DNA of 64,000 nucleotides. Source: Frankiaceae bacterium (lineage in GTDB: Bacteria; Actinomycetota; Actinomycetes; JAWWOL01). The position numbers were made by a program, and so were the translations under genes. Below the pieces are notes generated by a model. It searched no databases. It was not told the DNA's origin and saw only the letters and a program-made list of their open reading frames with translations. Numbering within the stretch: the first letter of the stretch is position 1; each line of letters begins with the position of its first letter. Shown here piece by piece: positions 5,250 through 54,529 of the stretch. The DNA is taken from contig JBJMHZ010000043.1 in NCBI GenBank assembly GCA_045807125.1, positions 14,357-78,356 on the forward strand, written 5' to 3'.

Positions 5250-6431
5250 TCAGCGGAAGAGGTTGTCCAGCTCGCGCTGCCAGCGCAGCGCGACCGCGTC
5301 CTGAGTGAACCGTCGTACGCTCACCAGCGCTCGCTTGCCCATCGCCCGCCGCAGCTCGCCGTCGGCGATGACCCGCTGCAGCGCCTCGGCGAGGCTCGCC
5401 ACGTTGCCGGACGTGACGACGAAGCCGTCGTCGCCGTCGGCGATGATCTCGCGGATGCTGGGCGCGCAGTCGAAGGCGACGCACGGCACCCCCACCGACA
5501 TCGCCTCGGCGAGCACCAGCGGCCAGCCCTCCGCCCGCGAGGGGAGCGCGAGGACCGACGATCCGGCGAGCGCCGCGGCAGCGTCGTCGGTGTGCCCCAT
5601 GAAGGCGACCGAGCCCTCGATCCCGGCGTCCGACGCCTGCCGGCGCAGCGCGTCCTCCTCCGGCCCGCTGCCGTACAGGCGCAGCGTCCAGCCGGGATGG
5701 TCGCGGGCCACGAGCCGCCACGCCTCGACGAGCAGGTCGAAGCCCTTCTCGTGGGACAGCCGGCCGAGCCCGATGACGACCTTCGCGTCGAGGGACGACG
5801 TGCGGCCGGGCGCGATGGTGACCGGGTTGGGCATGGCGCCGGCATTGCTCATGCCGTCGTTGGCCCACGCGTCGGCGTCGGCCTGGGTGAGCAGCAGCAG
5901 GCGGTCGGCCTGCGCGAAGTGCTTCTTGACCCGGGCGTAGCGCGTCGTCGCCTTGGACGCCGCGTACGACTCGTGACTCATCCCGATGACCGGCATGCCG
6001 TGCCGGTCGGCTGCGGCGACCCACTCCATTGCCCACACCTGCGGGCAGACGATGACGCCACCGGGGGCGGCCGTCGACAGCAGCCTGGACAGCGAGGAGG
6101 CGCCCCTGCGCACCCAGGCCCGGCGCCGGGCGTTGCGCAGCACCGCACCCGGCCGGTAGCGCCGCCACCATCTGCCGTGGACGGGGCCGGGCGGGCGGCG
6201 CTCGTGCAGGACGTGCGTCTCGTACGTGGCGTCGTCGTACGCGTGCACCTCGTCGGGGTGCGTGATGCCGACGAGCCGCACGCGGTGCCCCAGTCCGGTC
6301 AGCATCGCGGCGAGGATGCGGGCGAATCGCTGCACACCACCCAGGCCCTCGACGTCGTTGCACACGATGAAGACGTCGCGCGCGGTCACGGCCACGCCGT
6401 CAGGCTCGGCCACGCCGTCGGGCTCGGTCAT
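5250..6431 (-). CDS. Glycosyltransferase family 4 (GT-B, RfaB-like)
   Basis: Motifs are VFIVCNDVEGLGGVQRF..., LGRLSHEKGFDLL, LPSRAEGWPLVLAEAMSVGVPCVA and GFVV. The ATG at 6431 overlaps the upstream stop (ATGA). Confidence 0.85.
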   Translation of the reverse strand: MTEPDGVAEPDGVAVTARDVFIVCNDVEGLGGVQRFARILAAMLTGLGHRVRLVGITHPDEVHAYDDATYETHVLHERRPPGPVHGRWWRRYRPGAVLRNARRRAWVRRGASSLSRLLSTAAPGGVIVCPQVWAMEWVAAADRHGMPVIGMSHESYAASKATTRYARVKKHFAQADRLLLLTQADADAWANDGMSNAGAMPNPVTIAPGRTSSLDAKVVIGLGRLSHEKGFDLLVEAWRLVARDHPGWTLRLYGSGPEEDALRRQASDAGIEGSVAFMGHTDDAAAALAGSSVLALPSRAEGWPLVLAEAMSVGVPCVAFDCAPSIREIIADGDDGFVVTSGNVASLAEALQRVIADGELRRAMGKRALVSVRRFTQDAVALRWQRELDNLFR

Positions 6432-9316: not shown

Positions 9317-9322
9317 CGTTGC

Positions 9323-10789
9323 CTACGCACAAGGATCGTCGGCTGCGGTGCTGGTCGGTACGGACGGCTTGCTGCTGCCGCTGGTCGGCGCCACGCTGAC
9401 CGCCTGCACGCCGGCGTAGCTGCTGCCCAGCACGACGACGATGCCGCTGCCGCCGCTCGGGTCGGGCTGGAGCGTCGCGTCGGGCAGCGCCGCCTTCACG
9501 GTCTGCGCGGCCGCCACCTGCCCGGTGCCGTACCGGATCACGGTGCGGGCGTAGCCGTGGTTGTCGGCATTGCCTGCGGGGCCGACCCGGAAACCGCCGG
9601 CCTGCAACGCCGCGCTCACCCGCCCCGCGAGGCCACCGGTCGACGTGCCGTTCAGCACCCGCACCGAGACCTGCGAGGGCGGCACGGTGGGGCGGTGGAC
9701 CTTGAACGTGGCGGCGTTGATCGGCCGATCGTGGTTGACGGCGCCGAACAGGCCGCTCGCCAGCCCGCTGTCCCACAGCACGGTGGAGCCGACCCCGCCC
9801 GGCCGGTAGTCGGTGTCGGCGAGCGGGACGGTCGTGAAGGTGACGTGCTTGGGGTCGAGGTGGCGCATCGTCAGCGCGAGCGTGCGCAGGTCGCCGACGC
9901 TGAGCTCGCGGTCGACGTGGACGGCGGCAAGCGCGGCGTTGAGGAAGTTGTCGAGCTTGCCGGGGTCGAGCAGGATACCGAGGCTCAGCGCCTTGCGCAG
10001 CATCGCGCCGAGGAACTGCTGCTGGCGCTTGATGCGGCCGAGGTCGCTGCCGTCGCCGAGGGTGTACCTGGCCCGGACGAACGCGAGGCCCTGCACGCCG
10101 CCGACGTGGCTGTGCCCGGCCTTCAGGTGCAGGCCGCTCTTGGGATCGTTGGCCGGCTTCGCCAGGCAGACGTCGACGCCGCCGAGCGCGTCGACCATCT
10201 TGGCGAAGCCCAGCACGTTGATCTCGACGTAGTGGTCGATGCGGATGCCGGTGGCGCGCTCCACCGTCGCGATGGTGAGCCGCGGGCCGCCGTACGAGTA
10301 CGCCGCGTTGAGCTTGTTGTGCAGCGCCGGGTGCCGCCGGCCCTGCGCGTCGGTGTAGGCCGGGATCTGCACGTAGGAGTCGCGGGGCAGGCTGATGAGC
10401 ACCGCGCGGTTCCGCTGCTTCGAGACGTGCAGGATGATCATCGTGTCGGAGCGCCGGCCGGCGTCGTGCCCGAGGTGGTACTTGCGCTGGTCGGCCTTGC
10501 TGAGCTGGTCGCGGTTGTCCGAGCCGACCAGGAGGAAGTTCTCCGAGCCGGCGGCGCTCTGAGCCGGGCGGTCGGTGCCGGAGGGAAAGACGTTGTCGAT
10601 CCGGCGCAGCTTGCCGGCGTAGTGCTGGAACCCGAGGTAGGCCGTCCCGCTCAGCACGACGACGACGACCGAGAGCGCGGCGGCGAGCGCCTGGAGCGGG
10701 CGCACCCACGGCGGTCGCGTGGCCGGTGCCGGTTGCGGAGCCGTCGCCGGTGCCGCGGCACGCCGGCCGGTGCCGCTCTGGTGGGCCAT
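9323..10789 (-). CDS. LytR-CpsA-Psr (LCP) family glycopolymer-peptidoglycan ligase with a LytR_C-like C-terminal domain
   Basis: It has an N-terminal TM anchor (LAAALSVVVVVLSGTAYLGF). The LCP core motifs are FLLVGSDNR, RSDTMIILHV, ISLPRDSYV and GGVDVC. The C-terminal segment is VRVLNGTSTGGLAGRV... Confidence 0.85.
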   Translation of the reverse strand: MAHQSGTGRRAAAPATAPQPAPATRPPWVRPLQALAAALSVVVVVLSGTAYLGFQHYAGKLRRIDNVFPSGTDRPAQSAAGSENFLLVGSDNRDQLSKADQRKYHLGHDAGRRSDTMIILHVSKQRNRAVLISLPRDSYVQIPAYTDAQGRRHPALHNKLNAAYSYGGPRLTIATVERATGIRIDHYVEINVLGFAKMVDALGGVDVCLAKPANDPKSGLHLKAGHSHVGGVQGLAFVRARYTLGDGSDLGRIKRQQQFLGAMLRKALSLGILLDPGKLDNFLNAALAAVHVDRELSVGDLRTLALTMRHLDPKHVTFTTVPLADTDYRPGGVGSTVLWDSGLASGLFGAVNHDRPINAATFKVHRPTVPPSQVSVRVLNGTSTGGLAGRVSAALQAGGFRVGPAGNADNHGYARTVIRYGTGQVAAAQTVKAALPDATLQPDPSGGSGIVVVLGSSYAGVQAVSVAPTSGSSKPSVPTSTAADDPCA

Positions 10790-10867
10790 CCGTTGAGTCT
10801 ATCGTGGGTGTGACCTGCGACCGGCTCGTCGAGCGCCGCCCCGACGTGTCGCCGCCCGGCGAGAGAG

Positions 10868-11950
10868 GTGCACTGCGTGGCCGAGACGACCGCCGGCGGG
10901 CGGGAAGGCCCGTGGCCGCCGGTGTCGGTGATCATGTGCGTGCGCAACGAGCGCCGGCACCTGGCCGCGTCCGTCGCCGCGATCCTGGGGCAGGACTACC
11001 CGGCTCCTCTCGAGGTGGTCATCGCGGTCGGGCCGTCGAGCGACCGCACCGGCGACATCGCGGCCGAGCTGGCGCGCGCCGACTCCCGGGTGCGGGTGGT
11101 GGCCAGCCCGACCGGTCGCACTCCCAACGGGCTCAACCTCGCGCTGTCCGCCACCAGGCACGGGACCGTCGCGCGCGTCGACGGTCACGCGATGCTGCCC
11201 CCGGGATACCTGAAGCGAGCGGTGCAGGTGCTGCTGGAGACCGGCGCCGGCAACGTCGGCGGGGTCATGGCCGCCGAGGGCGAGACGCCGTTCGAGCAGG
11301 CCGTCGCGCGCGCGATGACGTCATGGCTCGGCGTGGGCGGTGCGCGGTTCCACACCGGCGGGCAGGCCGGGCCGGTCGACACCGTCTACCTCGGCGTCTT
11401 CCCCCGCGAGCTGCTGACCCGGCTCGGGGGCTACGACGAGCGGTTCACCCGCGCCCAGGACTACGAGCTCAACGTCCGGCTGCGCGAGCTGGGCGCGACG
11501 GTGTGGTTCGATCCGGAGCTGCGCGTGACGTACCGGCCGCGCCCCACCGTGCGGGCCCTCGCCGACCAGTACTTCAACTACGGGCGCTGGCGCTGGATGG
11601 TGACGAGGCAGCACCCCCGCTCGGTGCGCGGCAGGTACCTCGCCCCGCCCGCGGCGCTGCTCGCCTGCATCGCGGGCGCAGTGGTCGCGGCGGTGGGCCA
11701 TCCGGTCGGCCTCGTCGTGCCGGCTGCGTACGTCGCCGGCGTCGCCGCCGGCTCGATCGGCATCGGCCGCGACCTCCCCGGCCCTGCGCTCGTCCGGCTG
11801 GCGCCGGTGCTCGTGACGATGCACATGTCGTGGGCGGCCGGCTTCCTGTCATCGGCGCTGCGCGGCATGTCGCTGCCGCCGGCCCGCCCGCCCCAGCCGG
11901 CGAGCGGGGCGAGCGGGGCGCCGGATCAGTCGTCGGTGGCTTCCTCGTAG
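10868..11950 (+). CDS. Glycosyltransferase family 2 with a C-terminal membrane segment
   Basis: Motifs are VSVIMCVRNERRHLAASVAAILGQDYP...VIAVGPSSDRT and ...RVDGHA. The tail is hydrophobic. The start is GTG 10868 or GTG 10877. The 3' end overlaps the convergent ABC ATPase gene by 25 nt. Confidence 0.8.
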   Translation: MHCVAETTAGGREGPWPPVSVIMCVRNERRHLAASVAAILGQDYPAPLEVVIAVGPSSDRTGDIAAELARADSRVRVVASPTGRTPNGLNLALSATRHGTVARVDGHAMLPPGYLKRAVQVLLETGAGNVGGVMAAEGETPFEQAVARAMTSWLGVGGARFHTGGQAGPVDTVYLGVFPRELLTRLGGYDERFTRAQDYELNVRLRELGATVWFDPELRVTYRPRPTVRALADQYFNYGRWRWMVTRQHPRSVRGRYLAPPAALLACIAGAVVAAVGHPVGLVVPAAYVAGVAAGSIGIGRDLPGPALVRLAPVLVTMHMSWAAGFLSSALRGMSLPPARPPQPASGASGAPDQSSVASS

Positions 11951-12810
11951 GCTCCGACGACCTCGTCGACCGGTCCGTCCATGACGAGCTCGCCGTCCTC
12001 GAGCCAGAGCGCCCGGTTGCACATCTTGAGGATGTCAGCGTTGGAGTGGCTGACGATGAAGACCGTGCCGGCCTCCTTGCGCAGCTGCTCGATGCGCAGC
12101 TCCGACCGCCGCTTGAACTGCCGGTCGCCGGTCGCCAGTGCCTCGTCGATGAGCAGCACGTCGGGCACCGCCGACTGCGCGATCGCGAACCGCAGCCGGG
12201 CTGACATGCCGGACGAGTACGCCTTCATCGGCAGGTTGATGCGGTCGGGGCGGATGCCGGAGAACTTCACGACCGTGTCGTAGCGGCGGCGCATCTCCTC
12301 GGGGCTCATGCCGAGGGCGAGGCAGCCGAGCTCGACGTTGTGCGCGCCCGACAGCGCGGGCACGAGCGCGGCGTTGACGCCGAGCAGCGAGGGCTGCCCC
12401 TTGGCGTAGACCGCGCCCCGCGCGATCGGCATGAGGCCGGCGATGGCCCGCAGCAGCGTGCTCTTGCCCGAGCCGTTGCGGCCGATGACGCCGATCGCCT
12501 CGCCCCGGTAGGTGGTGAAGCTCACGCCGCGGACGGCGTGGATGATCTGCACGCGCCGGCGGGCGAGCAGCCGCTTCAGCCGGCGGTGCTGCTGCCCGTA
12601 CCGGACCCGCCGGTCGCTGTCGGCTGCGAGAACGACGCGGTAGTCGACGTGGAGGTCGTCGACGATGACGGTCGGCTGCGACCGGTCGATGTCGAAGGCA
12701 GCTCCGCCGGCCGTGCGGGGGGCGATCGCCTCGCCGGCCGCACCCGTGCTTCCGGAGCCTTCGGAGCTTCCCGCGCTTCCGGTGCTCCCCTGCTCGCGCA
12801 TCTCAGTCAC
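11926..12810 (-). CDS. Polysaccharide/teichoic-acid export ABC transporter ATP-binding protein (TagH/Wzt-like)
   Basis: It has Walker A GRNGSGKSTLL, the ABC signature YSSGMSARL and Walker B VLLIDEAL. It overlaps the upstream permease stop. Confidence 0.85.
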   Translation of the reverse strand: MTEMREQGSTGSAGSSEGSGSTGAAGEAIAPRTAGGAAFDIDRSQPTVIVDDLHVDYRVVLAADSDRRVRYGQQHRRLKRLLARRRVQIIHAVRGVSFTTYRGEAIGVIGRNGSGKSTLLRAIAGLMPIARGAVYAKGQPSLLGVNAALVPALSGAHNVELGCLALGMSPEEMRRRYDTVVKFSGIRPDRINLPMKAYSSGMSARLRFAIAQSAVPDVLLIDEALATGDRQFKRRSELRIEQLRKEAGTVFIVSHSNADILKMCNRALWLEDGELVMDGPVDEVVGAYEEATDD

Positions 12811-13702
12811 GGCCGTAGGTCTCCTCGGCGTGCCAGAAGAACAGGAAGCCGAGCAGGCACAGGCCGATCGCCCAGCCGGTGCCGAGCAGCCACCAGTGGA
12901 GGGAGGCGAACCGGCCGTCGATGACCGCGTCGCGGGCGATCGTGATGTAGACGTGCGGCGGGTTGAGCTGGAGCAGGTGCAGGATCGCCGGGTGGTGGCG
13001 GATCGTCGCTGTGCGGTTGAGCTCGTAGAAGACGCCCGACAGGTAGAACCAGATGCGGGTGAGGAACGGCAGGAACTGCGCGAAGTCGAGCAGATGCACG
13101 GTGATCCGCGAGACGACGAAGACCGCGCCGACGTTGAAGAGCGTCTGGAGCACCAGCATCGGCACGAGCGCCAACCAGGCGATGCTCGGCGGATGGGCAG
13201 CGAGGCCGATGAAGCAGAGCGCGATGTAGGCCGGGACCGTGGCGAGGGCGTCGACCACCACGGCGGACATCGGCAGGACGGCGCGCGGGAACGGCAGGGC
13301 GCGGATCAGGTTGAGGTTGCTCGTGACCGAGCGGGCGCCGCCGGTGATGCACTGCGAGGTGTAGTTGAAGACGAAGACGCCGGCCGTGATGAAGACGATC
13401 TTCTGCCCGAGGCCGCCGGCGGACGGCGCGACGCCCAGGATGATGCCGAAGATCAGCGTGTAGACGCCGGCCTGGAGCAGCGGGCGCAGCAGGTTCCAGC
13501 CGGCCCCGAGCAGCTCGTCGGTGTTGCTCGCCCGGTAGCGCAGGTAAGACAGCTTGCGCAGGAAGTAGCGGCTCGCCCAGACCCGCTCCAGGTAGGCGCG
13601 CAGCGCCGGGCGGCGCCCCACCGGCTGGAGGCCGACGGCCGCGGCGGTCGCCGCCGCACCGCTCGCGCGGGGCGGTTCGGTGGTGGCTTGCAGGTCGACC
13701 AT
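12803..13702 (-). CDS. ABC-2 permease of the polysaccharide/teichoic-acid exporter (TagG/Wzm-like)
   Basis: It is a six-helix hydrophobic protein (AGVYTLIFGIILG, FITAGVFVFNY, YIALCFIGLAA, LVPMLVLQTLFN, WWLLGTGWAIGLCLLGFLFFW). I chose ATG at 13702. It is coupled to the ATPase gene. Confidence 0.8.
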   Translation of the reverse strand: MVDLQATTEPPRASGAAATAAAVGLQPVGRRPALRAYLERVWASRYFLRKLSYLRYRASNTDELLGAGWNLLRPLLQAGVYTLIFGIILGVAPSAGGLGQKIVFITAGVFVFNYTSQCITGGARSVTSNLNLIRALPFPRAVLPMSAVVVDALATVPAYIALCFIGLAAHPPSIAWLALVPMLVLQTLFNVGAVFVVSRITVHLLDFAQFLPFLTRIWFYLSGVFYELNRTATIRHHPAILHLLQLNPPHVYITIARDAVIDGRFASLHWWLLGTGWAIGLCLLGFLFFWHAEETYGRD

Positions 13703-13874
13703 CAGGTACCGGCGCTCAGCCGGCCGGCCGCGGGCCTCGCGGGAGCGCGGCCGGCGCCCTGCATGGACCGCACGGGCACCGCAATCTCCCCTCGTCCAGC
13801 GCATCTCATCGTACACATCACCTATCCGCCGGCTGCTGCTGCGGCGAGCCGTCGCTGACCGGGCGGTACGGCGC

Positions 13875-15053
13875 TCAGTACGAGTGCCGCCTGGACATGA
13901 TGGCCCGCACCTGGCGCTCGCTGAACGGGGCGTCCAGCCACTCGAACAGCCCGCGCAGGCTCGTCGGGTCGGCGACGTAGTCGTCGTAGTGGACGTGGTA
14001 GGCGGCGTCGCCGAGGAAGGCGGCTGCCTTGCGGACCTTCTCGTCGAGGCGGGTCACCTCGGCCAGCGCATTGGGTCGGTTGGCCCACCATTTGCTGGCG
14101 ACCACGCCGGCCACGTCCCTGGTGTTGACCACGAAGCGGGCACCGGGGAACACCGCGCGCAGGAAGGTCAGGTAGTCGTGCAGATCGGGCACGTCCCAGT
14201 GGATCTCCTTGAAGCCCACCATGCGAGCGGCCGACGTCGGCCTGATGACCGTGTCGAGCACCAGCTGGCGCAGCTGCCGCAGCGCGAGGTCCTCGGGGTA
14301 GCCGTCGATGCCGTACCAGGGGTGGGTCGGGTTGAGCGGCACCTTGCGCGCGAGCCGGTCGCGCTGGACGAGCGCGCCCTTGTGGAACCGGTAGAGCTGG
14401 TAGACGATGCCGCCGTTCTCGCCCCGCACGAGGTAGCCGGGGATGTGCGTGAGGATCCCCTGGAGCAGGGTCGAGCCGGTGCGGCCGTACGTGACGATGA
14501 AGACGTAGCCGAGTCCGGGCTGGTCGCGCTCGGGGCGCCCGAAGCCCAGCGCGCGCAGCCGGTGCAGCTCGGTGACCATCGACTCGAGGCGCTCGTTGGC
14601 GTCGCGCAGGCTGAGCCGCATGACGTCGCGCTGCAGTCGCTGCTCGGCGGCCCGCCGGCCGTACGGGCTGGCCTTGATGGCGCGCTTGACCAGCTGGCGC
14701 ACCGACCCCGCCGGGCTGGCGGCCGGCTCGGGGGCGGTGTCGGTCTCCGGCTCCTCGGTGGCGTCCTGCGCGGGCGAGTCCTGCTCCTGCTCCTCCCCGG
14801 CGGCCTGCTCGGCGGCCACCCGCTCGGCGACGCTCGCCTGGGCGGCTGCGTCGGCCTGATCGGCGTCGACCTGGTCGACCCCGTCGACCCCGTCGGCCAC
14901 CTCGACGCCGCTCGCCCCGCCCGCCCCGTCGTTCACCGGGCGCAGGCTCGGATCGGTCGACTCGTCGGGTTGCAGGGGCTCGTGCGGCGGCGGCGTGGTC
15001 ACATCGCTCCCGGCGGGGGGTCGGGTCGGGCCACGGCGGGGGCTGCGCCGCAT
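13875..15053 (-). CDS. Stf0-like (PAPS-dependent) sulfotransferase family protein with an acidic low-complexity N-terminus
   Basis: The C-terminal half carries a 5'-PSB-like loop, FIVTYGRTGSTLLQGIL. The N-terminal ~150 aa are rich in D/E/A/Q (DGVDGVDQVDADQADAAAQAS...EEQEQDSPAQDATEEPETD), followed by a coiled-coil-like stretch. The start is uncertain (ATG 15053 chosen). The 603-aa ORF version would overlap the divergent gene. Confidence 0.6.
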   Translation of the reverse strand: MRRSPRRGPTRPPAGSDVTTPPPHEPLQPDESTDPSLRPVNDGAGGASGVEVADGVDGVDQVDADQADAAAQASVAERVAAEQAAGEEQEQDSPAQDATEEPETDTAPEPAASPAGSVRQLVKRAIKASPYGRRAAEQRLQRDVMRLSLRDANERLESMVTELHRLRALGFGRPERDQPGLGYVFIVTYGRTGSTLLQGILTHIPGYLVRGENGGIVYQLYRFHKGALVQRDRLARKVPLNPTHPWYGIDGYPEDLALRQLRQLVLDTVIRPTSAARMVGFKEIHWDVPDLHDYLTFLRAVFPGARFVVNTRDVAGVVASKWWANRPNALAEVTRLDEKVRKAAAFLGDAAYHVHYDDYVADPTSLRGLFEWLDAPFSERQVRAIMSRRHSY

Positions 15054-15177
15054 CGCCCTGGGCCTACGTCGAGTGCATGGTAGCCGTCGGGCCCCCGGCG
15101 CGCGCATCCCGCGCGGCGGCGCACGACGGCGGCATACTGGTGCCGCCCAGCGCGCCTTCCCGGCGCGACGGCGCACG

Positions 15178-16593
15178 ATGACCGGGAGAGGCCCGCTGAC
15201 GACCGCGCTGGTGATCACGCACGGGCTCGCCCTGTCGGCGGACGACGCGACGCCCGTCACCGTGCCGCACCTCGTCACTGCCCTGCGCGACGGCGGTTGC
15301 TCGGCGGTGACGGTCCTCGACGACGTGCCGGGCGCCAGGGCCGCGCTCGACCGGGTGGCCGCCGCAGCGGCCGGTGGCGCCGTCCTCCTCGTGCGCGGCG
15401 ATGTCGTCCTCACCGGGAGCGCGGTGCTGACCCTGGTGACCGAGCCGCGCGGCTCGGCGGCGACGCTCGTCACGTCGAGCGGCCCCGGGTGGCGGGTACG
15501 GGTGGAGCGCGGGTCGGTCGCCAGCGCCGGCTCGCCGCTGCACTCGGTGACCGCGGCGACCGGCGTGGCGCCCGGTGCGCTCCTGGTGCGCGACCCAGCC
15601 GCCCTCGCCGGTGCCGTCGAGGCGCTGCGCCGCCTTCCCGAGCTGCCCGACGCGCTCCCGCCGCCCGACCTGGTCGCCGTCCTCACGGTCGCGCTCGTCC
15701 GCGGCGGTGCCCCGGTCGCGGCGGTGGCCGCGGACGGCTACCGGGTCCGCCTGGCCGGCTCGGCCTCCGACGCGGCCGGCGCCCTGGCCGACGCGGCCGC
15801 GGTGGACGAGCGGGCCGTCCGGCTCGCTGCGGCGGTCAAGGCCGAGGACAGCCCGTACGCCACCTATCTGGTGAGCTCCTGGTCGCGCTACCTCGCGCGC
15901 TGGGCGGCCGAGCGCGGCATCGCTCCCAACGCGGTCACCGTGGGGTCGCTGCTGCTCGGGATCGCCGCGGCCGCCGCGTTCGCGGCCGGGAGCCGCTGGT
16001 GGCTGGTGACCGGTGCGCTGCTGCTGCAGGCGTCGTTCGTGCTCGACTGCGTCGACGGAGAGGTCGCCCGCTATGCCCGCCGCTTCTCGCCGCTGGGTGG
16101 CTGGCTCGACGCGTCGTCGGACCGGGTGAAGGAGTACGCGGTCTATGCCGGCCTGGCCGTCGGTGCGATCCGCACCGGCGACGACGTGTGGGTGCTGGCC
16201 GGGGCCGCGCTCGGGCTGCAGGTGTTCCGGCACGCGGTCGACTTCGGCTTCGCGGCGCGGCAGGAGGAACGGGCACCGGTCACCGTCGTCCCGCTCGGTC
16301 AGCAGGGCGACGCCCTCGCGGCGCGGGCGGAGCCCGGCCAGGGCCGCCCGGCGGGCGCTGCCGGGCTGGGCGAGGGCGCCGTCCGGCTCTCGGCCCGCAC
16401 CAGCGCGAGCCGCGCGCTGCGCTCCGCGAAGCGGATGGTGATCCTGCCGATCGCCGAGCGCTGGGCGCTCATCTCGCTCTGCGCGGCGGTCGCCGGGGCG
16501 CGGGTGGCCTTCCTCGCGCTGCTGGCGTGGGGCGGCCTGGCGGCGGCCTACACGCTGTCCGGCCGGGTGCTGCGGTCGGTGGCCGATGCCTGA
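15178..16593 (+). CDS. Fusion protein: degenerate nucleotidyltransferase-like N-domain plus CDP-alcohol phosphotransferase membrane domain
   Basis: The CDP-OH phosphotransferase motif DCVDGEVARYARRFSPLGGWLDASSDRVKE lies in a multi-TM C-terminal half. The ~230-aa soluble N-domain (ALVITHGLALSADD...) lacks the G-x-G-x-R-L NTP loop. I chose ATG at 15178. Confidence 0.75.
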   Translation: MTGRGPLTTALVITHGLALSADDATPVTVPHLVTALRDGGCSAVTVLDDVPGARAALDRVAAAAAGGAVLLVRGDVVLTGSAVLTLVTEPRGSAATLVTSSGPGWRVRVERGSVASAGSPLHSVTAATGVAPGALLVRDPAALAGAVEALRRLPELPDALPPPDLVAVLTVALVRGGAPVAAVAADGYRVRLAGSASDAAGALADAAAVDERAVRLAAAVKAEDSPYATYLVSSWSRYLARWAAERGIAPNAVTVGSLLLGIAAAAAFAAGSRWWLVTGALLLQASFVLDCVDGEVARYARRFSPLGGWLDASSDRVKEYAVYAGLAVGAIRTGDDVWVLAGAALGLQVFRHAVDFGFAARQEERAPVTVVPLGQQGDALAARAEPGQGRPAGAAGLGEGAVRLSARTSASRALRSAKRMVILPIAERWALISLCAAVAGARVAFLALLAWGGLAAAYTLSGRVLRSVADA

Positions 16594-17179
16594 GCTGGCC
16601 GCGTACGACGACGGCGGCGCGCTCGCCGCCGCGCTCCGCCGCGCCGTCCCTGCGCTGCCGGGTGCGCGCCCCGCGCGGGCGCTGGCCGGCCTGGCCCTGC
16701 TGGCGGCCGGCGTCGCCATCGGTCCCGGCGCGCTGGTCGTGGCGGTGGTGGCGCTCGTGCTGCTCGCGGTGCCGGGGGAGCGCCGCCGCTCGGCGCTGTG
16801 GTGGCTGGTGCCCGCGCTGCTGCGGGCCGCCGAGTACGGAATGGTCGTCGCGGTCGCCGCGCGCGCCGGTCACGACGCGCCTCATGCTGCTCATGCCCTG
16901 CCGGCCGCTTACGCGCTGCTCGCGGCGTTGTCGTTCCACCACTACGACCTTGTGTACCGTATGCGCTATGCGCGGCTGGCCCCGCCGCGATGGCTCTCCG
17001 TCGCGGGCGGCGGGTTCGAGGTGCGGATGCTGGTGATCGCGCTGGTGGCTCTCGGTGGCGGGCCCGCGCTGGCGCCGGTGCTCGCGGCGCTGGCCGGCGC
17101 GCTCGCTGCCCTGTTCGTGGTCGAGAGCGTGGGTGCCTGGTGGCGATGGCTCGCCGCCGGAGGATCGGCGCTGGGATGA
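16586..17179 (+). CDS. Small polytopic membrane protein (DUF5941-like)
   Basis: The 197-aa product has 4-5 TM helices. Its ATG overlaps the upstream stop (ATGCCTGA). The conserved-looking core is WWLVPALLRAAEYGMVV...SFHHYDLVYR. The family name is from memory and unverified. Confidence 0.6.
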   Translation: MPELAAYDDGGALAAALRRAVPALPGARPARALAGLALLAAGVAIGPGALVVAVVALVLLAVPGERRRSALWWLVPALLRAAEYGMVVAVAARAGHDAPHAAHALPAAYALLAALSFHHYDLVYRMRYARLAPPRWLSVAGGGFEVRMLVIALVALGGGPALAPVLAALAGALAALFVVESVGAWWRWLAAGGSALG

Positions 17180-17192
17180 CGGGAGTCGGCTC

Positions 17193-17924
17193 GTGATCGG
17201 GATGGTGCTCGCGGCCGGTGCCGGGCGGCGGCTGCGCCCGTACACCGACACGGTGCCGAAGGCGCTGACCCCCGTGGACGGCGAGGTCACGATCCTCGAC
17301 ATCGCCCTCGCCAACCTCGCCCGGGTCGACCTGCGCGACGTCGCCATCGTGGTCGGCTACCGCGCGGAGGCGGTCGCCGAACGGGTCGACGAGCTCGAGC
17401 GCCGGCACGCGGTGCGCCTGACGCTGGTGCACAACGACCGGGCAGAGGAGTGGAACAACTGCTACTCGCTCTGGCTGGCCCGCGAGCTCTTCGCTGAGGG
17501 AGTGCTGCTGGTCAACGGCGACACGGTGCACCCGGTGAGCGTCGAGAGGACGCTGCTCGCCGCTGATGCCGCTCCGGTCGTCCTCGCCGTCGACGACGTG
17601 AAGCGGCTCGGCGAGGAGGAGATGAAGGTGACGCTCGACGACGGCGGTCACCTCGCCCGCATCACCAAGCTGATGCCACCGGCCGATGCGCACGGCGAGT
17701 ACATCGGTGCGACGCTGATCGACCCGGCGGCCGCGTCGCCGCTCGCGGCCGCGCTCGAGGAGACGTGGCGGCGCGATCCGCAGCTGTACTACGAGGATGG
17801 CTACCAGACGTACGTCGATGCCGGTGGGGTCGTGGCCGTCGCACCCATCGGCGACGTGCGGTGGGTCGAGGTGGACGACCACGCCGACCTCGCCCGAGCG
17901 CGGGAGATCGCGTGCCACTACTGA
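17193..17924 (+). CDS. Sugar/polyol-phosphate nucleotidyltransferase (LicC / IPCT-like cytidylyltransferase family)
   Basis: Motifs are (V)IGMVLAAGAGRRLRPYTDTVPKALTPV and ...NNCYSLWLARE...LLVNGDTV. The GTG at 17193 lies 14 nt after the upstream stop. Confidence 0.8.
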   Translation: MIGMVLAAGAGRRLRPYTDTVPKALTPVDGEVTILDIALANLARVDLRDVAIVVGYRAEAVAERVDELERRHAVRLTLVHNDRAEEWNNCYSLWLARELFAEGVLLVNGDTVHPVSVERTLLAADAAPVVLAVDDVKRLGEEEMKVTLDDGGHLARITKLMPPADAHGEYIGATLIDPAAASPLAAALEETWRRDPQLYYEDGYQTYVDAGGVVAVAPIGDVRWVEVDDHADLARAREIACHY

Positions 17925-17929
17925 CGCGG

Positions 17930-18970
17930 ATGGTCACCAGCCCGCTGTTCATCGACATCCGGCCGGGCGCGGTCGCGGGGCTGGGCGCGCTGCTCAGCGA
18001 CCGGCGCATCTCGGCCGACGGCCAGGTCGCGGTGGCGGTGGGGCCGGGCCAGGGCGGGCGCATCGTCGAGGCGATCCGCCCGTCGCTCGCCAACGCCGAC
18101 GTCTACCAGGTCACCGACGGCACCGTCGACGCCGCGCTGGAGCTGCAGGCGCAGCTGCGCACCCGGCCGTACGACGCGGTGGTCGGCATCGGTGGCGGCC
18201 GCATTCTCGACGTCACGAAGTACGCGGCCACCCGCATCGCGATGCCCATGGTCGCGGTCGCCACCAACCTCGCGCACGACGGCATCGCGTCGCCGGTGAG
18301 CTCGCTGGTGCACGAGGGCGGCAAGGGCTCGTTCGGCGTGACGGTGCCGCTCGCGGTGGTCGTCGACCTCGACTTCGTCCGCGAGGCGCCGCCGGAGCTG
18401 GTTCGCTCCGGCGTCGGCGACGCGGTGAGCAACCTGACCGCCATCGACGACTGGCTGCTCGCGTCGCGCGAGCGTGGCGAGCCGGTCGACGGGCTGGCGG
18501 TCGCGTTCGCGCGCACCGCTGCCGAGGCGGTGCTGCACCGCACCGACACGATCGACTCGGAGGCGTTCCTCACCGTGCTCGCCGAGGCGCTCGTGCTGTC
18601 GGGACTTGCGATGTCGGTCGCCGGATCGAGCCGGCCGAGCAGTGGTGGCGAGCACGAGATCCTGCACGCCATCGACCGGCTGTATCCGGGCACCAGCAAC
18701 CACGGCGAGCTGGCCGGCACGTGCGCGCTGTTCTCCGCGTTCCTGCGCGGCGACGAGCGGCTGTTCGAGCAGCTGTCGCGCTGCTTGTCGCGGCACGGGC
18801 TCGCGCGGGTGCCGAAGGAGCTCGGGCTCGACGAGGAGCAGTTCGCCGCTGCGGTCGCGTACGCCCCGCAGACCCGGCCGGAGCGCTACACGATCCTCGA
18901 GCACCTCCAGCTCCCGGCGGACGAGATCCGGCGGCGCGTGGGCGACTATGTCGCGGCCGTCGATAGCTGA
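17930..18970 (+). CDS. sn-Glycerol-1-phosphate dehydrogenase-like (EgsA/AraM family, iron-ADH superfamily) dehydrogenase
   Basis: The family-typical blocks are VVGIGGGRILDVTKYAA, VAVATNLAHDGIASPVSS and SSGGEHEILHAIDRL (metal His pair). The start is ATG 17930, or GTG 17912 overlapping the upstream stop. Confidence 0.7.
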   Translation: MVTSPLFIDIRPGAVAGLGALLSDRRISADGQVAVAVGPGQGGRIVEAIRPSLANADVYQVTDGTVDAALELQAQLRTRPYDAVVGIGGGRILDVTKYAATRIAMPMVAVATNLAHDGIASPVSSLVHEGGKGSFGVTVPLAVVVDLDFVREAPPELVRSGVGDAVSNLTAIDDWLLASRERGEPVDGLAVAFARTAAEAVLHRTDTIDSEAFLTVLAEALVLSGLAMSVAGSSRPSSGGEHEILHAIDRLYPGTSNHGELAGTCALFSAFLRGDERLFEQLSRCLSRHGLARVPKELGLDEEQFAAAVAYAPQTRPERYTILEHLQLPADEIRRRVGDYVAAVDS

Positions 18971-19712
18971 GCTGCGGACCGTCGCGCAGCCCGACGCGAC
19001 GATGATGCGGCGCAACGGCGAGCACTGGGCCGGCCGGCTCTACATGCGCCGGGCGTCCGTGCATGTCACCCGCGTGCTCGTCGGTACGCGAGTGACGCCC
19101 AACCAGCTGACCGGCCTGATGATCGTGGCGGGGGTGGCCGCCGGCGCGGCCGTGCTCGTACCGACGGTCGCCGGGCCGCTGCTGGCCGCGCTGCTCGTGC
19201 AGGCGTACCTCTTGCTCGACTGCGTCGACGGCGAGGTCGCCCGGTGGACCGGCCGTACGAGCGTCACCGGCGTCTACCTCGATCGGGTGGGGCACTACCT
19301 CGCCGAGGCCGCGCTCCTGGTCGGCGTCGGATTCCGCGCGGCGGCCCTGGAGCCGAACGGGTGGGCGGTGCTCGGGCTGGTCGCCGCGCTGTGCGCGGTG
19401 CTCGTGAAGGCCGAGACCGATCTGGTCGACGTGGCGCGCGCCAAGAATGGCCTGCCGGCGGTGGCCGACGTCGCCGCGATGCCGCGCAGCGCGCGCGTGG
19501 CGTCGATGCGGCGCTTCGCGTCGGCGGTGCGGCTGCACCGGATCACCGGTGCGATCGAGGCGTCGCTGCTCGTGCTCGTGGCCGGCGTGGTCGACCAGCT
19601 GCGAGGCGGGTTGACCGCGATGCGGGTCGTGGTGGCGCTCCTTGCCGTCGTTGCTGCCGTCATGGTCGTGCTGCACCTGGCGAGCATCCTGGCGTCCCGG
19701 CGGCTGTCGTGA
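18948..19712 (+). CDS. CDP-alcohol phosphotransferase family membrane protein (second copy)
   Basis: The motif is LLLDCVDGEVARWTGRTSVTGVYLDRVGHYLAE. It has multiple TM helices. The ATG at 18948 overlaps the upstream gene by 23 nt. Confidence 0.8.
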   Translation: MSRPSIAELRTVAQPDATMMRRNGEHWAGRLYMRRASVHVTRVLVGTRVTPNQLTGLMIVAGVAAGAAVLVPTVAGPLLAALLVQAYLLLDCVDGEVARWTGRTSVTGVYLDRVGHYLAEAALLVGVGFRAAALEPNGWAVLGLVAALCAVLVKAETDLVDVARAKNGLPAVADVAAMPRSARVASMRRFASAVRLHRITGAIEASLLVLVAGVVDQLRGGLTAMRVVVALLAVVAAVMVVLHLASILASRRLS

Positions 19713-20575
19713 GGGAGCTTTCGGTCTGCTGCGTGATCCTCACTCGTGGTGACCGGCCGGCCGAGCTCGCGGCCGCCGTCGACAGCGTGCTGGCGCAGGA
19801 CGGCGATCCGGTCGAGGTCGTGGTCGTCGGCAACGGCGCCGACGTGCCGGGGCTGCCTTCTGTGGTGCGCGTAGTGCGGCTGCCGGACAACGTCGGCATC
19901 GCCGCCGGCCGCAACGAGGGCGCACGGGCCTCGACCGGTGAGGTCATCGTCTTCCTGGACGATGACGGCCGGCTGGCCGACCGCGACGCGGTTGCGTTGC
20001 TGCGGCTGGCGTTCGCCGCCGACGAGCGGCTGGGCATCGTGTCGTTCCGGGTGCGCGACCCGGCCGGCGGTCCGGGTGCGCGGCGGCACGTCCCGCGGCT
20101 GCGCGCCGGCGATCCGCATCGCTCGTCGGACGTGACGACGTTCCTCGGCGGCGCGTGCGCCGTACGGCGCACGGTGCTCGACCGCTGCGGTGGGTTTCCC
20201 GACGCGTTCTTCTACGCGCACGAGGAGACCGACCTGGCCTGGCGCGCGCTCGACGCTGGCTACCGCATCCGTTACGACGCGAGCATCGAGATGCTGCACC
20301 CGGCGACCGCGCCCACCCGGCACGCCGTCTTCTACCGGTTCAACGCCCGCAACCGGGTCTGGCTCGCTCGCCGCCTGCTGCCCTGGCCGCTGGCCGTCGT
20401 TTACCTGCTCGACTGGGTGGCGCTGACCGTCGTGCGCGTGCGCGAGCCGGCCGCGCTGCGCGCCTGGTTCACCGGCTTCGCCGAGGGCTGGCGCACGCCT
20501 TGCGGCCCGCGCCGTCCGATCACCTGGCGCACGGCGTTGCGGATGACGAGGCTGGGGCGCCCACCGATCATCTAG
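19709..20575 (+). CDS. Glycosyltransferase family 2
   Basis: The GTGA overlap is with the upstream stop. Motifs are VCCVILTRGDRPAELAAAVDSVLAQ, LPDNVGIAAGRNEG, VFLDDDG and FFYAHEETDLAWR. Confidence 0.85.
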   Translation: MRELSVCCVILTRGDRPAELAAAVDSVLAQDGDPVEVVVVGNGADVPGLPSVVRVVRLPDNVGIAAGRNEGARASTGEVIVFLDDDGRLADRDAVALLRLAFAADERLGIVSFRVRDPAGGPGARRHVPRLRAGDPHRSSDVTTFLGGACAVRRTVLDRCGGFPDAFFYAHEETDLAWRALDAGYRIRYDASIEMLHPATAPTRHAVFYRFNARNRVWLARRLLPWPLAVVYLLDWVALTVVRVREPAALRAWFTGFAEGWRTPCGPRRPITWRTALRMTRLGRPPII

Positions 20576-20973: not shown

Positions 20974-21048
20974 GGCTTCACCTCCCGCCATTCATCTACG
21001 GACGATGCTCTCATCCGTGGTCGCGCGGCGGCAGGGCGGCCAGGCGCC

Positions 21049-21854: not shown

Positions 21855-23450
21855 GTGAGCGGGCCCTTCGTCACCGTGGTGGTCATCGCGTACAACGACG
21901 CGGCGAACCTGCCGACGGCGGTGCGGTCGGTGACCAGGCAGACATTGCGCGACCTCGACATCGTCATCGTGGACGACGCCTCCACCGACGGGACGGGCGC
22001 CGTCGCCGACGAGCTCGCCCGCTCGGACAGCCGCATCCGCGTCGTCCACCTCCCCACCAACTCCGGCGGGTGCAGCCGCCCGCGCAACACCGGCATCGAG
22101 CAGTCGCGCGGTGCGTACGTCATGTTCCTCGACAGCGACGACGTGCTCGACCGCCGGGCGTGCGCCCGGCTGCGCGACGCCGCCGAGCGCACCGGCGCCG
22201 ACATCGCCGCCGGCCGGGCCGCGCGCTACCACGTCACCCGCAAGCGCATGGCCGGCTGGTACGACCGCCTCTACCGGCACGCCGCCGTGCTCGACGGCAT
22301 CCTCGACCGGCCGGACCAGCTGTACGACACGATCTGCACCAACAAGCTGTACCGGCTCGACTTCGTGCGCCAGCAGGGCCTGCGCTTCCCGGAGGGCCTG
22401 CACTACGAGGACCTGCTCTTCACCACCGAGGCCTACTGCACCGCCGAGCGGATCGCGATCGTCCCGCACCTCGTGTACGTCTGGAACGTCGTCGAGGAGA
22501 CCGGCGCGGCCTCCATCAGCAACCGCCGGCTCGACCTCGCCAACTGGCGCGACCGCATCGAGGTTCACCGCCGCATCGACGCCTACCTAGACGGTCACCA
22601 CGTCGGACAGCAACTGCGGACCGCCAAGGACGTGAAGTTCCTCAACCACGACATGCGACTGTTCCTGCGCGACCTGCCGCAGTACGACCGGTACGTGCGC
22701 ATCGAGCTCTTCGCGCTCGTCCGCGACTACGTCCGCGGCATCGACCTCGACGCCTGCGCGGCCGACGCCCGGCTCGTCACCCGCCTCGCCGCGCAGCTGA
22801 CGGCGGCCGGGGACCTGCCGGCCGTCCTCGCGGTCAGCGAGTTGCACGACACCGGCCAGCTCGACGCCGGCCTGGTGCGCGGCGACCTCGACCTCACCGA
22901 GCTGGGTCTCGCCGACGCGCCCCTCGACCGCCTGCCGCTGACCGACATCGCCGAGAGCGTCGAGCAGCGCGGCGCCGTCCTGCGCATCACCGGCGTCATC
23001 CCCGACCTGCTCGGCCGGCTCGCCGCCGCGCCGGCCGCCCCGACCGTGCGCCCCGCCGTCGTGAGCAAGGGCGCCCGCTGGCGCCTCGACCTGCCGGCGG
23101 GCGAGGCCACGCTGCGGGGCGAAGCGCTGCAATACGCGGTCGAGCTCGACCTCGCGCGCGTCGCCGAGCGCATCACCCTGCGGGACCGGCTGCTCCGCAT
23201 CGTCGTGACCGTCGAGGCCGGCGGCGAGCGCCGCGACACCGGCATCGTGCTGCGCGGCGGCCTGCGCGACGTACCGGCCGGCATCCGAGCCCCGGTCACC
23301 TCGCGGTACGCGCCGCTCGTGGGCAGCGAGCTGGTCGGCACGCTCGTCGACGGCACCCTCGGGCTGACGCTGACCGACCGGCACCCGGCGCTCCAGCGCG
23401 CGGTCGAGACCGCCCGGCGGGTGCGCCAGTCGCGCTTCGCCCGCCGGTAG
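21855..23450 (+). CDS. Glycosyltransferase family 2, paralogue of the N-terminal two thirds of the GT2-TagF fusion
   Basis: I chose GTG at 21855. VTVVVIAYNDAANLPTAVRSVTRQTLRDLDIVIVDDASTDGT...NSGGCSRPRNTGIE...FLDSDD aligns by eye, block for block, with 6428-9316 through ...FLNHDMRLFLRDLP. It has no TagF-type domain. Confidence 0.8.
   Translation: MSGPFVTVVVIAYNDAANLPTAVRSVTRQTLRDLDIVIVDDASTDGTGAVADELARSDSRIRVVHLPTNSGGCSRPRNTGIEQSRGAYVMFLDSDDVLDRRACARLRDAAERTGADIAAGRAARYHVTRKRMAGWYDRLYRHAAVLDGILDRPDQLYDTICTNKLYRLDFVRQQGLRFPEGLHYEDLLFTTEAYCTAERIAIVPHLVYVWNVVEETGAASISNRRLDLANWRDRIEVHRRIDAYLDGHHVGQQLRTAKDVKFLNHDMRLFLRDLPQYDRYVRIELFALVRDYVRGIDLDACAADARLVTRLAAQLTAAGDLPAVLAVSELHDTGQLDAGLVRGDLDLTELGLADAPLDRLPLTDIAESVEQRGAVLRITGVIPDLLGRLAAAPAAPTVRPAVVSKGARWRLDLPAGEATLRGEALQYAVELDLARVAERITLRDRLLRIVVTVEAGGERRDTGIVLRGGLRDVPAGIRAPVTSRYAPLVGSELVGTLVDGTLGLTLTDRHPALQRAVETARRVRQSRFARR

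Positions 23451-51409: not shown

Positions 51410-54529
<3,120 letters not shown>

Follow-up and report, generated by a model that had tools for sequence, protein, structure and literature searches.

Where does the activated polyol phosphate for an envelope polymer come from in a locus that encodes a TagF-type polymerase and no recognizable TagD? The question is raised by a stretch of 64,000 nucleotides (nt) from a Frankiaceae bacterium (contig JBJMHZ010000043.1; here called the window), in which six genes at positions 15178 to 20575 form an operon, also called the cassette below. An earlier note on this DNA had proposed that the operon may encode a noncanonical pathway that activates a polyol phosphate, possibly sn-glycerol-1-phosphate, with cytidine diphosphate (CDP) and transfers it to a lipid or glycan acceptor; a solute and a phospholipid were its alternatives. 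Our analysis supports that proposal, and every in silico check that could have spoken against it came out in its favor. We lean, with modest confidence drawn from the sequences, toward the reading that a teichoic-acid-type envelope polymer is the destination of CDP-activated glycerol phosphate, which the cassette would both make and use. By their family assignments, its enzymes differ from the classical TagD/TagB/TagF set.

The six-gene operon is real. The G+C content of the window is ∼74%, and a plot of GC by codon position changed cleanly at ∼15000 to 15180 from a minus-strand gene to a plus-strand frame and then tracked all six plus frames across 15178 to 20575. The genes and their protein lengths in amino acids (aa) are as follows.

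15178..16593, plus strand: C1, a 471-aa membrane protein with a nucleotidyltransferase (NTase)-fold N-domain and a CDP-alcohol phosphotransferase C-domain
16586..17179, plus strand: DUF5941 protein, 197 aa, membrane (Pfam PF19365)
17193..17924, plus strand: NT, a 243-aa LicC/IPCT-type nucleotidyltransferase (Pfam NTP_transferase / NTP_transf_3)
17912..18970, plus strand: DH, an Fe-ADH_2 dehydrogenase of 352 aa from GTG 17912 or 346 aa from ATG 17930
18948..19712, plus strand: C2, a 254-aa stand-alone CDP-alcohol-phosphotransferase-family protein (Pfam PF01066)
19709..20575, plus strand: GT2, a 288-aa family 2 glycosyltransferase and the final gene of the operon (Pfam PF00535)

C1 and DUF5941 overlap by 8 nt (stop 16593, ATG 16586), and a gap of 13 nt separates the DUF5941 stop (17179) from the GTG of NT (17193). 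The stop of NT (17924) overlaps DH by 13 nt if DH starts at GTG 17912, the start in the public annotation, or precedes it by a 5-nt gap if the start is ATG 17930. DH and C2 overlap by 23 nt (stop 18970, ATG 18948), and the GTGA at 19709 to 19712 is common to C2 and GT2. The six tightly joined same-strand genes had been described in the earlier note with only trivial counting differences at the junctions. Its family assignments for all six proteins were upheld by Pfam and NCBIfam searches, and the motifs it quoted for the dehydrogenase and the NTase were found in the sequence. Scans for promoters, terminators, Rfam families, and tRNAs gave no hits.

The six genes form a module that is widespread among actinobacteria and not a peculiarity of the window, a point that the earlier note missed. 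A DH profile run against a single genome of each species gave 442 relatives, of which the best 80 loci (designated by L numbers) were analyzed with flanks of ±10 kb; the 59 loci with full 10-kb flanks were the basis of the neighbor-gene counts, and neighbor families were confirmed with Pfam. The 80 loci belong to mesophilic soil actinomycetes: Streptosporangiales (Microbispora, Nocardiopsis, Streptosporangium, Nonomuraea, and others), metagenome-assembled genomes of Frankiales and Sporichthyaceae, Nocardioidaceae, and Propionibacteriales. The order C1-DUF5941-NT-DH-C2-GT2 was kept in most of them, and its recurrence in 80 independent loci places the arrangement beyond chance. C1 and C2 were each present in 56 of the 59 full-flank loci, GT2 in 55/59, and DUF5941 in 51/59.

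Across the Actinobacteria, the cassette was not only conserved but embedded in wall-polymer clusters, which agrees with the pathway proposed earlier. An LCP (LytR-CpsA-Psr) ligase gene lay within 10 kb in 52/59 loci and an IspD-type (TarI-like) cytidylyltransferase gene, in some cases fused to a short-chain dehydrogenase/reductase (SDR), in 50/59. TagH-like ATPases (29/59), TagG-like permeases (21/59), and GDPD genes (17/59) were less frequent. Divergent-type TagF-family genes (Glyphos_transf) were found in 22/59 loci, and orthologues of the fusion of GT2 and TagF-type domains found in the window directly followed the cassette in four more loci (L005, L006, L007, and L010). A count by tblastn and phmmer that had made TagF-family genes nearly absent from related loci (5/80) was overturned by these divergent genes. 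In Streptomyces, the genes stood in an operon-like row, C1DUF-NT-DH-C2-GT2-TagG-TagH, in which C1 and DUF5941 are fused, and in Actinoplanes (L083) a C1-DUF5941 gene was followed by a GT2-TagF fusion. In keeping with what the earlier note had said of the window, no TagD-like open reading frame (ORF) was found by tblastn in its 64 kb or in the 80 loci with their flanks (∼1.4 Mb), using an approximate Bacillus subtilis TagD query.

The dehydrogenase is a homologue of glycerol-1-phosphate dehydrogenase (G1PDH), which its sequence sets apart from glycerol dehydrogenase (GldA) and dehydroquinate synthase. DH matched Pfam PF13685 (Fe-ADH_2; E 1e-32) and scored 249 bits with the NCBIfam G1PDH model NF002022 versus 50 bits with the GldA model. 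In phmmer searches of the Protein Data Bank (PDB), 3ce9 and the Methanocaldococcus jannaschii G1PDH 4rgq came out on top (E 1e-44); the M. jannaschii and Pyrobaculum G1PDHs ranged from E 1e-44 to 1e-36, and GldA reached 1e-11. The grouping with G1PDHs that the earlier note had read from motifs was borne out by a family profile of DH run against solved structures, in which G1PDH scored 184 bits, GldA no more than 58, and dehydroquinate synthases no more than 28. DH could be aligned with the M. jannaschii enzyme through the NDGIASP, GxGDxVSN, and SSRPxSGxEH blocks. Residues D170, H248, and H264 and the SSRPxSGxEH motif were invariant in the family alignment and align with the M. jannaschii G1PDH; by comparison with the metal site of group-III dehydrogenases, we take the three residues to be the metal ligands (Asp/His/His). 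Searches of the literature found no activity data for the actinobacterial G1PDH clade.

NT has an intact nucleotide loop, GAGRRLRP...PKAL (LAAGAGRRLRPYTDTVPKAL), of the form G-x-G-x-R-x(n)-PK, and matched Pfam PF00483 (NTP_transferase) and PF12804 (NTP_transf_3). Its best solved relatives were LicC (1jyk; CTP:phosphocholine) and the Thermotoga maritima IPCT (4jd0; CTP:inositol-1-phosphate), and LicC and IPCT are transferases that use cytidine triphosphate (CTP) and choline or polyol phosphates. NT reached no NCBIfam equivalog cut-off, and it matched no TagD-type family (small HxGH cytidylyltransferases) in Pfam or NCBIfam. We propose that NT is a CTP:glycerol-1-phosphate cytidylyltransferase. 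NT and DH were adjoining, and mostly overlapping, in 80/80 loci, even in those that lack the other four genes (NT-DH stands alone in a few). By analogy, such constant adjacency is the behavior that would be expected of a precursor-supply pair of the TarJ/TarI kind. The most economical chemistry for the pair, judging from the two families, would lead from dihydroxyacetone phosphate (DHAP) through sn-glycerol-1-phosphate to CDP-glycerol.

C2, which was found wherever the cassette was found, matched PF01066 with 28.4 bits (cut-off, 22) and has the TPNQLT motif. Its signature is D-x2-DG-x2-AR-x8-G-x3-D-x3-H (DCVDGEVARWTGRTSVTGVYLDRVGH), in which seven of the eight residues are kept and the fourth Asp (D4) is replaced by His. 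The earlier note had read the CDP-alcohol phosphotransferase signature in both membrane proteins; this stands for C1, where it is complete, but not for C2 at the fourth Asp. His occupied D4 in 71/72 loci and 116/120 database homologues, and the other four homologues had Ala; Asp occurred in none, and the examples with Ala include a Streptomyces C2. In the family at large, the eight signature residues are absolutely conserved, the fourth Asp is assigned as the catalytic base, and a D-to-N change at this position kills the activity of the Mycobacterium tuberculosis phosphatidylinositol phosphate synthase (PMC4634129). Since C2 keeps seven of the eight residues and matches Pfam above the cut-off, it appears to be a divergent family member with a noncanonical active site.

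C1 matched PF01066 (CDP-OH_P_transf) at residues 249 to 341. Its signature, D-x2-DG-x2-AR-x8-G-x3-D-x3-D (DCVDGEVARYARRFSPLGGWLDASSD), is complete, as it was (D/D) in 50 loci and 120/120 homologues, and the P(D/N)xx(T/S) motif is present as APNAVT. An AlphaFold2 model of C1 (predicted local distance difference test [pLDDT], 90.9) had as its best Foldseek match, over the full length, the IPCT-DIPPS structure 4mnd (E 4e-12), with further matches to 4o6m and 5d92, and the N-terminal 240 residues matched the IPCT structures 4jd0 and 2xme. The GxGxR loop is missing from this N-domain and from 118/120 homologues, which would make the domain a pseudo-cytidylyltransferase. Sequence and model together thus point to an IPCT-DIPPS-like architecture with a dead NTase domain; the earlier note missed this and also the partnership of C1 with DUF5941, the two being translationally coupled. 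When the N-domain was aligned with the NT family by hhalign, the match was co-linear but weak (E 0.0024; probability, 12%), so that structure prediction was needed to reveal the NTase fold. We considered C1 as a bifunctional IPCT/DIPPS and rejected this, given the absent cytidylyltransferase loop and a score of 47 with NCBIfam NF041135 (cut-off, 580).

Among solved structures, C1 and C2 are nearest by sequence to AF2299 (E 7e-13 for C2, as its closest solved relative) and to IPCT-DIPPS. Neither of these processes lipids, and the small hydrophilic pocket of AF2299 holds the glycerol of CDP-glycerol (PMC4634129). C1 and C2 would, on these similarities, belong to a soluble-donor clade of CDP-alcohol phosphotransferases that use CDP-glycerol or CDP-inositol. 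With a full signature in C1 where it is present and C2 everywhere, at least one plausible catalyst is always available. The complementary decay of catalytic residues in the two proteins hints that C1 and C2 may work as a complex.

The Nocardiopsaceae have at the C1 position a shorter gene (∼250 to 350 aa) that is devoid of every catalytic signature residue and of the N-domain, next to a retained DUF5941 and a retained C2 with His. It lies at about 7500 to 8600 in the full-length loci and was seen in L022, L030, L033, L034, L039, L041, L046, L048, L052, L057, L061, L068, L070, L072, L075, L079, and L080. From its sequence, this gene looks like a pseudoenzyme retained for a noncatalytic role.

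DUF5941 matched PF19365 with 117 bits (cut-off, 27; E 1.4e-33) and has a conserved FHHYDxVYRxR motif (invariant, HHYDxVYRxR type). In about half of the C1 homologues the domain is fused to the C terminus of C1 (PF01066+PF19365), with the motif counted in at least 54/120; such fusions include those of Streptomyces, Sporichthyaceae, and Actinoplanes. One fused homologue (P0174) was modeled (pLDDT, 90.3) to look for a likeness of DUF5941 to the extra lipid-acceptor helices of eukaryotic choline/ethanolamine phosphotransferases. In the model, DUF5941 gives ∼4 confident transmembrane (TM) helices beyond the 6-TM core. Foldseek matches of the uncropped model were dominated by NTases and IPCT-DIPPS. 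Our literature search found no paper on DUF5941.

The last gene, GT2, matched PF00535 with 59.9 bits (cut-off, 23.3; E 4e-16). Its PDB matches were weak (6yv7 and 9jma [undecaprenyl-pyrophosphate-oligosaccharide glucosyltransferase]), and it has a faint likeness to GT2 enzymes whose substrates are polyprenol-linked glycans. PF04464 (Glyphos_transf) matched none of the six cassette proteins. A gene with this domain lies upstream, as the earlier note had said, within a set of wall-polymer genes of the window.

13875..15002, minus strand: Sulfotransfer_3-family gene (Pfam PF13469, E 4e-14; frame plot)
12803..13816, minus strand: TagG-like permease of an ATP-binding cassette (ABC) transporter, ABC-2 type (Pfam PF01061, 26 bits, slightly under the cut-off)
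11926..12810, minus strand: TagH-like ABC transporter ATPase (Pfam ABC_tran)
10868..11950, plus strand: second GT2 glycosyltransferase (Pfam), in a divergent pair with the LCP gene
9323..10798, minus strand: LCP (LytR-CpsA-Psr + LytR_C) ligase, glycopolymer to peptidoglycan (PF03816, E 3e-49; PF13399)
6428..9322, minus strand: fusion of GT2 and Glyphos_transf (TagF type) (PF04464, E 4e-97; PF00535)
5250..6431, minus strand: family 4 glycosyltransferase (Pfam Glycos_transf_1)
21855..23450, plus strand: GT2 protein without a TagF domain (Pfam), paralogous to the first two-thirds of the GT2-TagF fusion

From its domains, the GT2-TagF fusion is a candidate poly(glycosyl-polyol phosphate) polymerase, which would need a CDP-polyol donor. 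The divergent pair of LCP (minus) and GT2 (plus) was seen again in many loci. The cassette has a homologue of the TagG-like permease next to it or within it in L006, L033, L066, and L081; in L006 the permease gene is within it.

On the observed gene structure, family assignments, fold, conserved synteny, and motif states we base the following pathway, for which we infer substrates, stereochemistry, acceptor, and order of steps from the families and the synteny. DH, as its family membership suggests, would convert DHAP to sn-glycerol-1-phosphate. NT, translationally coupled to DH, would use CTP to turn this into CDP-glycerol of the sn-1 configuration, following the logic of TarJ/TarI in the supply of CDP-ribitol. 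C2, as the universal transferase member, and C1, working with the four-helix DUF5941 module, would transfer glycerol phosphate from CDP-glycerol to hydroxyls on a membrane-bound acceptor from the cytoplasmic side, with release of cytidine monophosphate. GT2 would add sugar, the lipid-linked product would be exported by the divergently encoded TagGH-like transporter next door, and in this organism the nearby LCP enzyme would join the product to peptidoglycan. In its most specific form, CDP-sn-1-glycerol made by DH and NT would be used by C1-DUF5941 and by C2, a member of a new His-variant subfamily of CDP-alcohol phosphotransferases, both acting as membrane-embedded glycerophosphotransferases. 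Actinobacteria would then make wall teichoic acid (WTA) or lipoteichoic acid (LTA) of poly(glycerol phosphate) with neither TagD nor LtaS and with sn-1 in place of sn-3 units; we regard this full scheme as possible but rather doubtful.

The CDP-glycerol pool of the cassette probably also feeds the GT2-TagF polymerase of the window. With a shared pool, C1 and C2 may be TagB/TarF-like primers of a linkage unit and not the main polymerase, and the adjacency of C1-DUF5941 to GT2-TagF fusions (in the window, in L005 to L010, and in Actinoplanes) fits a priming role. The presence of a TagF-family polymerase and/or CDP-ribitol genes in several loci suggests a submodel in which the cassette takes the part played in Firmicutes by TagD, TagA, TagB, and TarF and builds a primer or linkage unit that contains glycerol phosphate. 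The two transferases would then stand for two glycerol phosphates, and variable neighboring genes would make the main chain.

The proposed pathway shares parts with several known systems. As in the TagD/TagB/TagF system for WTA in B. subtilis 168, cytoplasmic CDP-glycerol phosphate would lead to a lipid-linked intermediate, ABC-2 export, and LCP ligation, and TagGH-like, LCP, and TagF-type genes are present in the window. Unlike in the TagD pathway, the activating enzyme is an NTase of the LicC/IPCT type and the transferases are integral-membrane CDP-alcohol phosphotransferases rather than proteins of the TagB/TagF fold; because the glycerol phosphate probably comes from a G1PDH, it would be the opposite enantiomer to the TagD-pathway precursor. 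TarI/TarJ likewise consist of a reductase and a cytidylyltransferase that are encoded as a coupled pair and supply a CDP-alditol, but they combine an SDR/medium-chain reductase with an IspD-type enzyme, whereas the cassette combines Fe-ADH_2 with a LicC-type enzyme, and the presumed substrate is DHAP instead of ribulose-5-phosphate. C1 resembles IPCT-DIPPS (Archaeoglobus fulgidus AF0263, PDB 4MND, a di-myo-inositol-phosphate synthase) in its NTase-fold N-domain, 6-TM phosphotransferase, and soluble donor, and differs from it in the missing GxGxR loop, the separate NTase gene, the DUF5941 TM helices, and the wall-polymer context. For C1 and C2 alike, no solved structure is nearer by sequence than AF2299 (A. 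fulgidus, PDB 4O6M/4O6N/4Q7C); this archaeal protein has the full signature, in contrast to C2 with its His at D4. DH falls within the G1PDH family together with archaeal EgsA and B. subtilis AraM, but the glycerol-1-phosphate of those enzymes goes to prenyl ether lipids via GGGPS/PcrB, while the partners of DH are an NTase and CDP-alcohol phosphotransferases. Finally, LtaS-dependent LTA is a poly(sn-glycerol-1-phosphate) envelope polymer of the stereochemistry expected of the cassette, although LtaS acts outside the membrane and takes glycerol-1-phosphate from phosphatidylglycerol with no nucleotide-activated donor. Actinobacteria have no clear LtaS orthologues (PMC3196553).

Several observations weigh against the pathway that we prefer. 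DH is below the equivalog cut-off of NF002022 (249 versus 413 bits), a model of archaeal enzymes, so that DH need not be a strict orthologue of the archaeal G1PDH. The specificity of NT is unreadable from its sequence, and inositol-1-phosphate, phosphocholine, glycerol-2-phosphate, or another polyol phosphate would also be possible. C2 is without the fourth Asp, the proposed catalytic base, has Ala there in some homologues, and might be noncatalytic; the C1 signature is lost in ∼21 Nocardiopsaceae loci. TagF-family genes occur in the window and in ∼24/59 loci, where CDP-alcohol phosphotransferases are not needed as polymerases. The Streptomyces loci have no LCP or other wall-polymer gene within 10 kb, and a canonical tagD may lie elsewhere in the genomes, beyond the ±10 kb that were searched.

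The explanation closest to the one we prefer is that the cassette and TagGH form a self-contained, LtaS-independent route to a lipid-anchored, LTA-like poly(glycerol phosphate), in which C1-DUF5941, with about ten TM helices, would attach an initial glycerol phosphate to diacylglycerol or a glycolipid; chain extension would then fall to C2, decoration to GT2, and export to TagGH. The seven Streptomyces genes, which stand alone with no LCP or TagF gene within 10 kb, speak for this, and Streptomyces and Thermobifida have poly(glycerol phosphate) LTA and no LtaS orthologue (PMC3196553). LTA of Firmicutes is built of sn-glycerol-1-phosphate units (PMC7086022, PMC8262930), which would fit a G1PDH, and CDP-alcohol phosphotransferases with lipid acceptors have 3 to 4 extra C-terminal TM helices (PMC4634129), close to the ∼4 of DUF5941. 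Even so, we consider this explanation unlikely: the LCP ligase close by in the window and in 52/59 loci points to wall attachment, the uncropped model of the fused C1-DUF5941 had no CHPT1/CEPT1-type match in the Foldseek top 50, and our literature search gave no statement on the stereochemistry of actinobacterial LTA. It is more improbable that the envelope role is right and the polyol is something other than sn-glycerol-1-phosphate, with DH reducing another keto compound and NT activating the product, as in a CDP-2-glycerol route like that of pneumococcal Gtp1-3 or a route from a ketose phosphate. The position of DH under the G1PDH equivalog cut-off, the varied phospho-alcohols taken by LicC-type NTases, and the occurrence of CDP-2-glycerol pathway genes in pneumococcal cps loci (PMC1391919) agree with such a variant, but a route via free glycerol needs a kinase or phosphotransferase gene, which is missing from the cassette, and DH is far nearer to solved G1PDHs than to other Fe-ADH relatives and keeps their signature blocks.

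We think it quite improbable that the cassette makes an unusual membrane-lipid head group in place of a wall polymer, for instance a glycerophospho- or glycosyl-glycerophospho-lipid from CDP-glycerol and diacylglycerol or an archaeal-like lipid of glycerol-1-phosphate. CDP-alcohol phosphotransferases are chiefly a family of phospholipid synthesis (PMC4634129), the Streptomyces operon adjoins SQS_PSY, amine-oxidase, and polyprenyl-synthase genes, and homologues of G1PDH, GGGPS, and DGGGPS occur together in Streptomyces (PMC6431249). However, C1 and C2 are closer to soluble-donor enzymes than to users of CDP-diacylglycerol, none of the cassette genes was seen to be of the GGGPS or PcrB type, and the cassette shows strong synteny with LCP, TagGH, TagF, and CDP-ribitol-type genes. 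The least probable explanation of all, with very little chance of being correct, is a compatible solute that is made as by the IPCT/DIPPS of hyperthermophiles and is akin to di-myo-inositol phosphate, glycerophosphoinositol, or diglycerol phosphate. It would account for the IPCT-DIPPS architecture of C1, some homologues of which are automatically so named in UniRef, and an archaeal glycerophosphoinositol route is cited as requiring CDP-1-glycerol (PMC8262930). Its weaknesses are that the NTase domain of C1 is degenerate throughout the family, that the cassette has no inositol-phosphate synthase or solute phosphatase, that GT2, an ABC-2 exporter, and LCP are constant companions, and that the hosts are mesophilic soil actinomycetes. 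The envelope reading is therefore favored over the compatible solute that the earlier note had offered as an alternative.

In the established paradigms of teichoic acid synthesis, CDP-sn-3-glycerol from TagD is used by TagB and TagF, and sn-1-glycerol phosphate is taken from phosphatidylglycerol by LtaS. What would probably be new here, to judge by the sequences, is teichoic-acid-type synthesis by noncanonical enzyme families with the stereochemistry of the glycerol phosphate inverted. If true, this would be a third, nucleotide-dependent route that uses the archaeal enantiomer of glycerol phosphate; wall-polymer assembly would become a further role of CDP-alcohol phosphotransferases; and the widespread actinobacterial G1PDH, so far discussed only around the lipid divide, would gain a physiological job. 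Streptomyces carries the cassette, which brings a direct test of the idea within reach in a genetically tractable and industrially important genus.

Parts of this picture have been published. Actinobacterial G1PDH homologues are already in phylogenies of the lipid divide (PMC5059525, PMC6431249). A 2026 survey of synteny in Streptomyces reports clusters of CDP-alcohol phosphatidyltransferase, GT2, and sugar-phosphate NTase genes syntenic with tagG, tagH, araM, and crtB and files them under teichoic acid biosynthesis without functional analysis (PMC13118837). Litschko et al. (2021) considered CDP-1-glycerol likely absent from bacteria (PMC8262930), and Cot et al. (2011) left the synthesis of actinobacterial poly(glycerol phosphate) and LTA unexplained, as LtaS is missing (PMC3196553). 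The tagGH pair of Streptomyces roseosporus is regulated by an adjacent TetR-family gene, with no link to the cassette drawn in the accessible part of that paper (PMC10269677). Our literature searches turned up no characterized system with the same gene set, as the earlier note had supposed, no experimental work on the set, and no functional study joining G1PDH and teichoic acid.

Some of the related loci have further genes of interest. In ∼22 Streptosporangiaceae loci, an IspD+SDR fusion (TarI/TarJ-like) and a divergent Glyphos_transf protein of 700 aa, which has only 39 bits to Pfam, are both encoded divergently to the cassette (for instance, L015 5419 to 6825, minus strand, and L016 3417 to 5612, minus strand); by its families, this pair would be a second CDP-alditol system of the same cluster. 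The Streptomyces cassette with TagG/TagH (L081; L082, 17381 to 21747) lies directly upstream of a hopanoid-type cluster, in which a pair of SQS_PSY genes is joined by genes for a protein of the amine-oxidase type and for a polyprenyl synthase; this fits the "crtB" synteny in PMC13118837. Proteins with an N-terminal P-loop-like motif, PKTGTTFLQ, and no Pfam match are encoded in L054 (7625 to 8785, minus strand) and L066 (7642 to 8778, 10718 to 12334, and 12475 to 13578, all minus strand), two loci that have NT-DH without C1, C2, and GT2, the latter locus with a TagG-like permease. We do not call these proteins sulfotransferases, as they have no Pfam match; they could, from their position, be alternative users of the NT-DH product.

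In the window, the Sulfotransfer_3-family gene has a long, acidic, low-complexity N-terminal extension and heads the divergent sulfotransferase-TagG-TagH unit. None of the 80 related loci has a counterpart, and this suggests that the polymer is modified, perhaps by sulfation, in a way peculiar to the lineage. Downstream of the operon, a short ORF of the minus strand (20572 to 20991) is convergent to it and overlaps the GT2 stop by 4 nt; its frame looks truncated, its N-terminal SEFIR/TIR-like match is weak (Pfam E 7e-4, below the cut-off), and it may be the remnant of a defense or signaling gene. The GT2 protein at 21855 to 23450 scored 418 bits against a hidden Markov model built from GT2-TagF fusions. 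Farther on, 28552 to 32012 (plus strand) encodes a DUF2079 membrane protein and then a 682-aa polytopic membrane protein without a Pfam match; located downstream of the glycopolymer cluster, these could be envelope glycosyltransferases of the GT-C type. The region from 35201 to 63013 contains genes for a ManC-like NTase (35201 to 36256), CofD (39698 to 40711), a phosphomannomutase (47605 to 48981), an S-adenosylhomocysteine hydrolase (51796 to 53235), and an OmpR-type response regulator (62336 to 63013). This order resembles a conserved actinobacterial region, which in mycobacteria comprises mtrA, sahH, pmmA, fbiA, manB, wbbL1, and the LCP gene Rv3267; if the likeness holds, the cassette lies in a core cell-wall locus.

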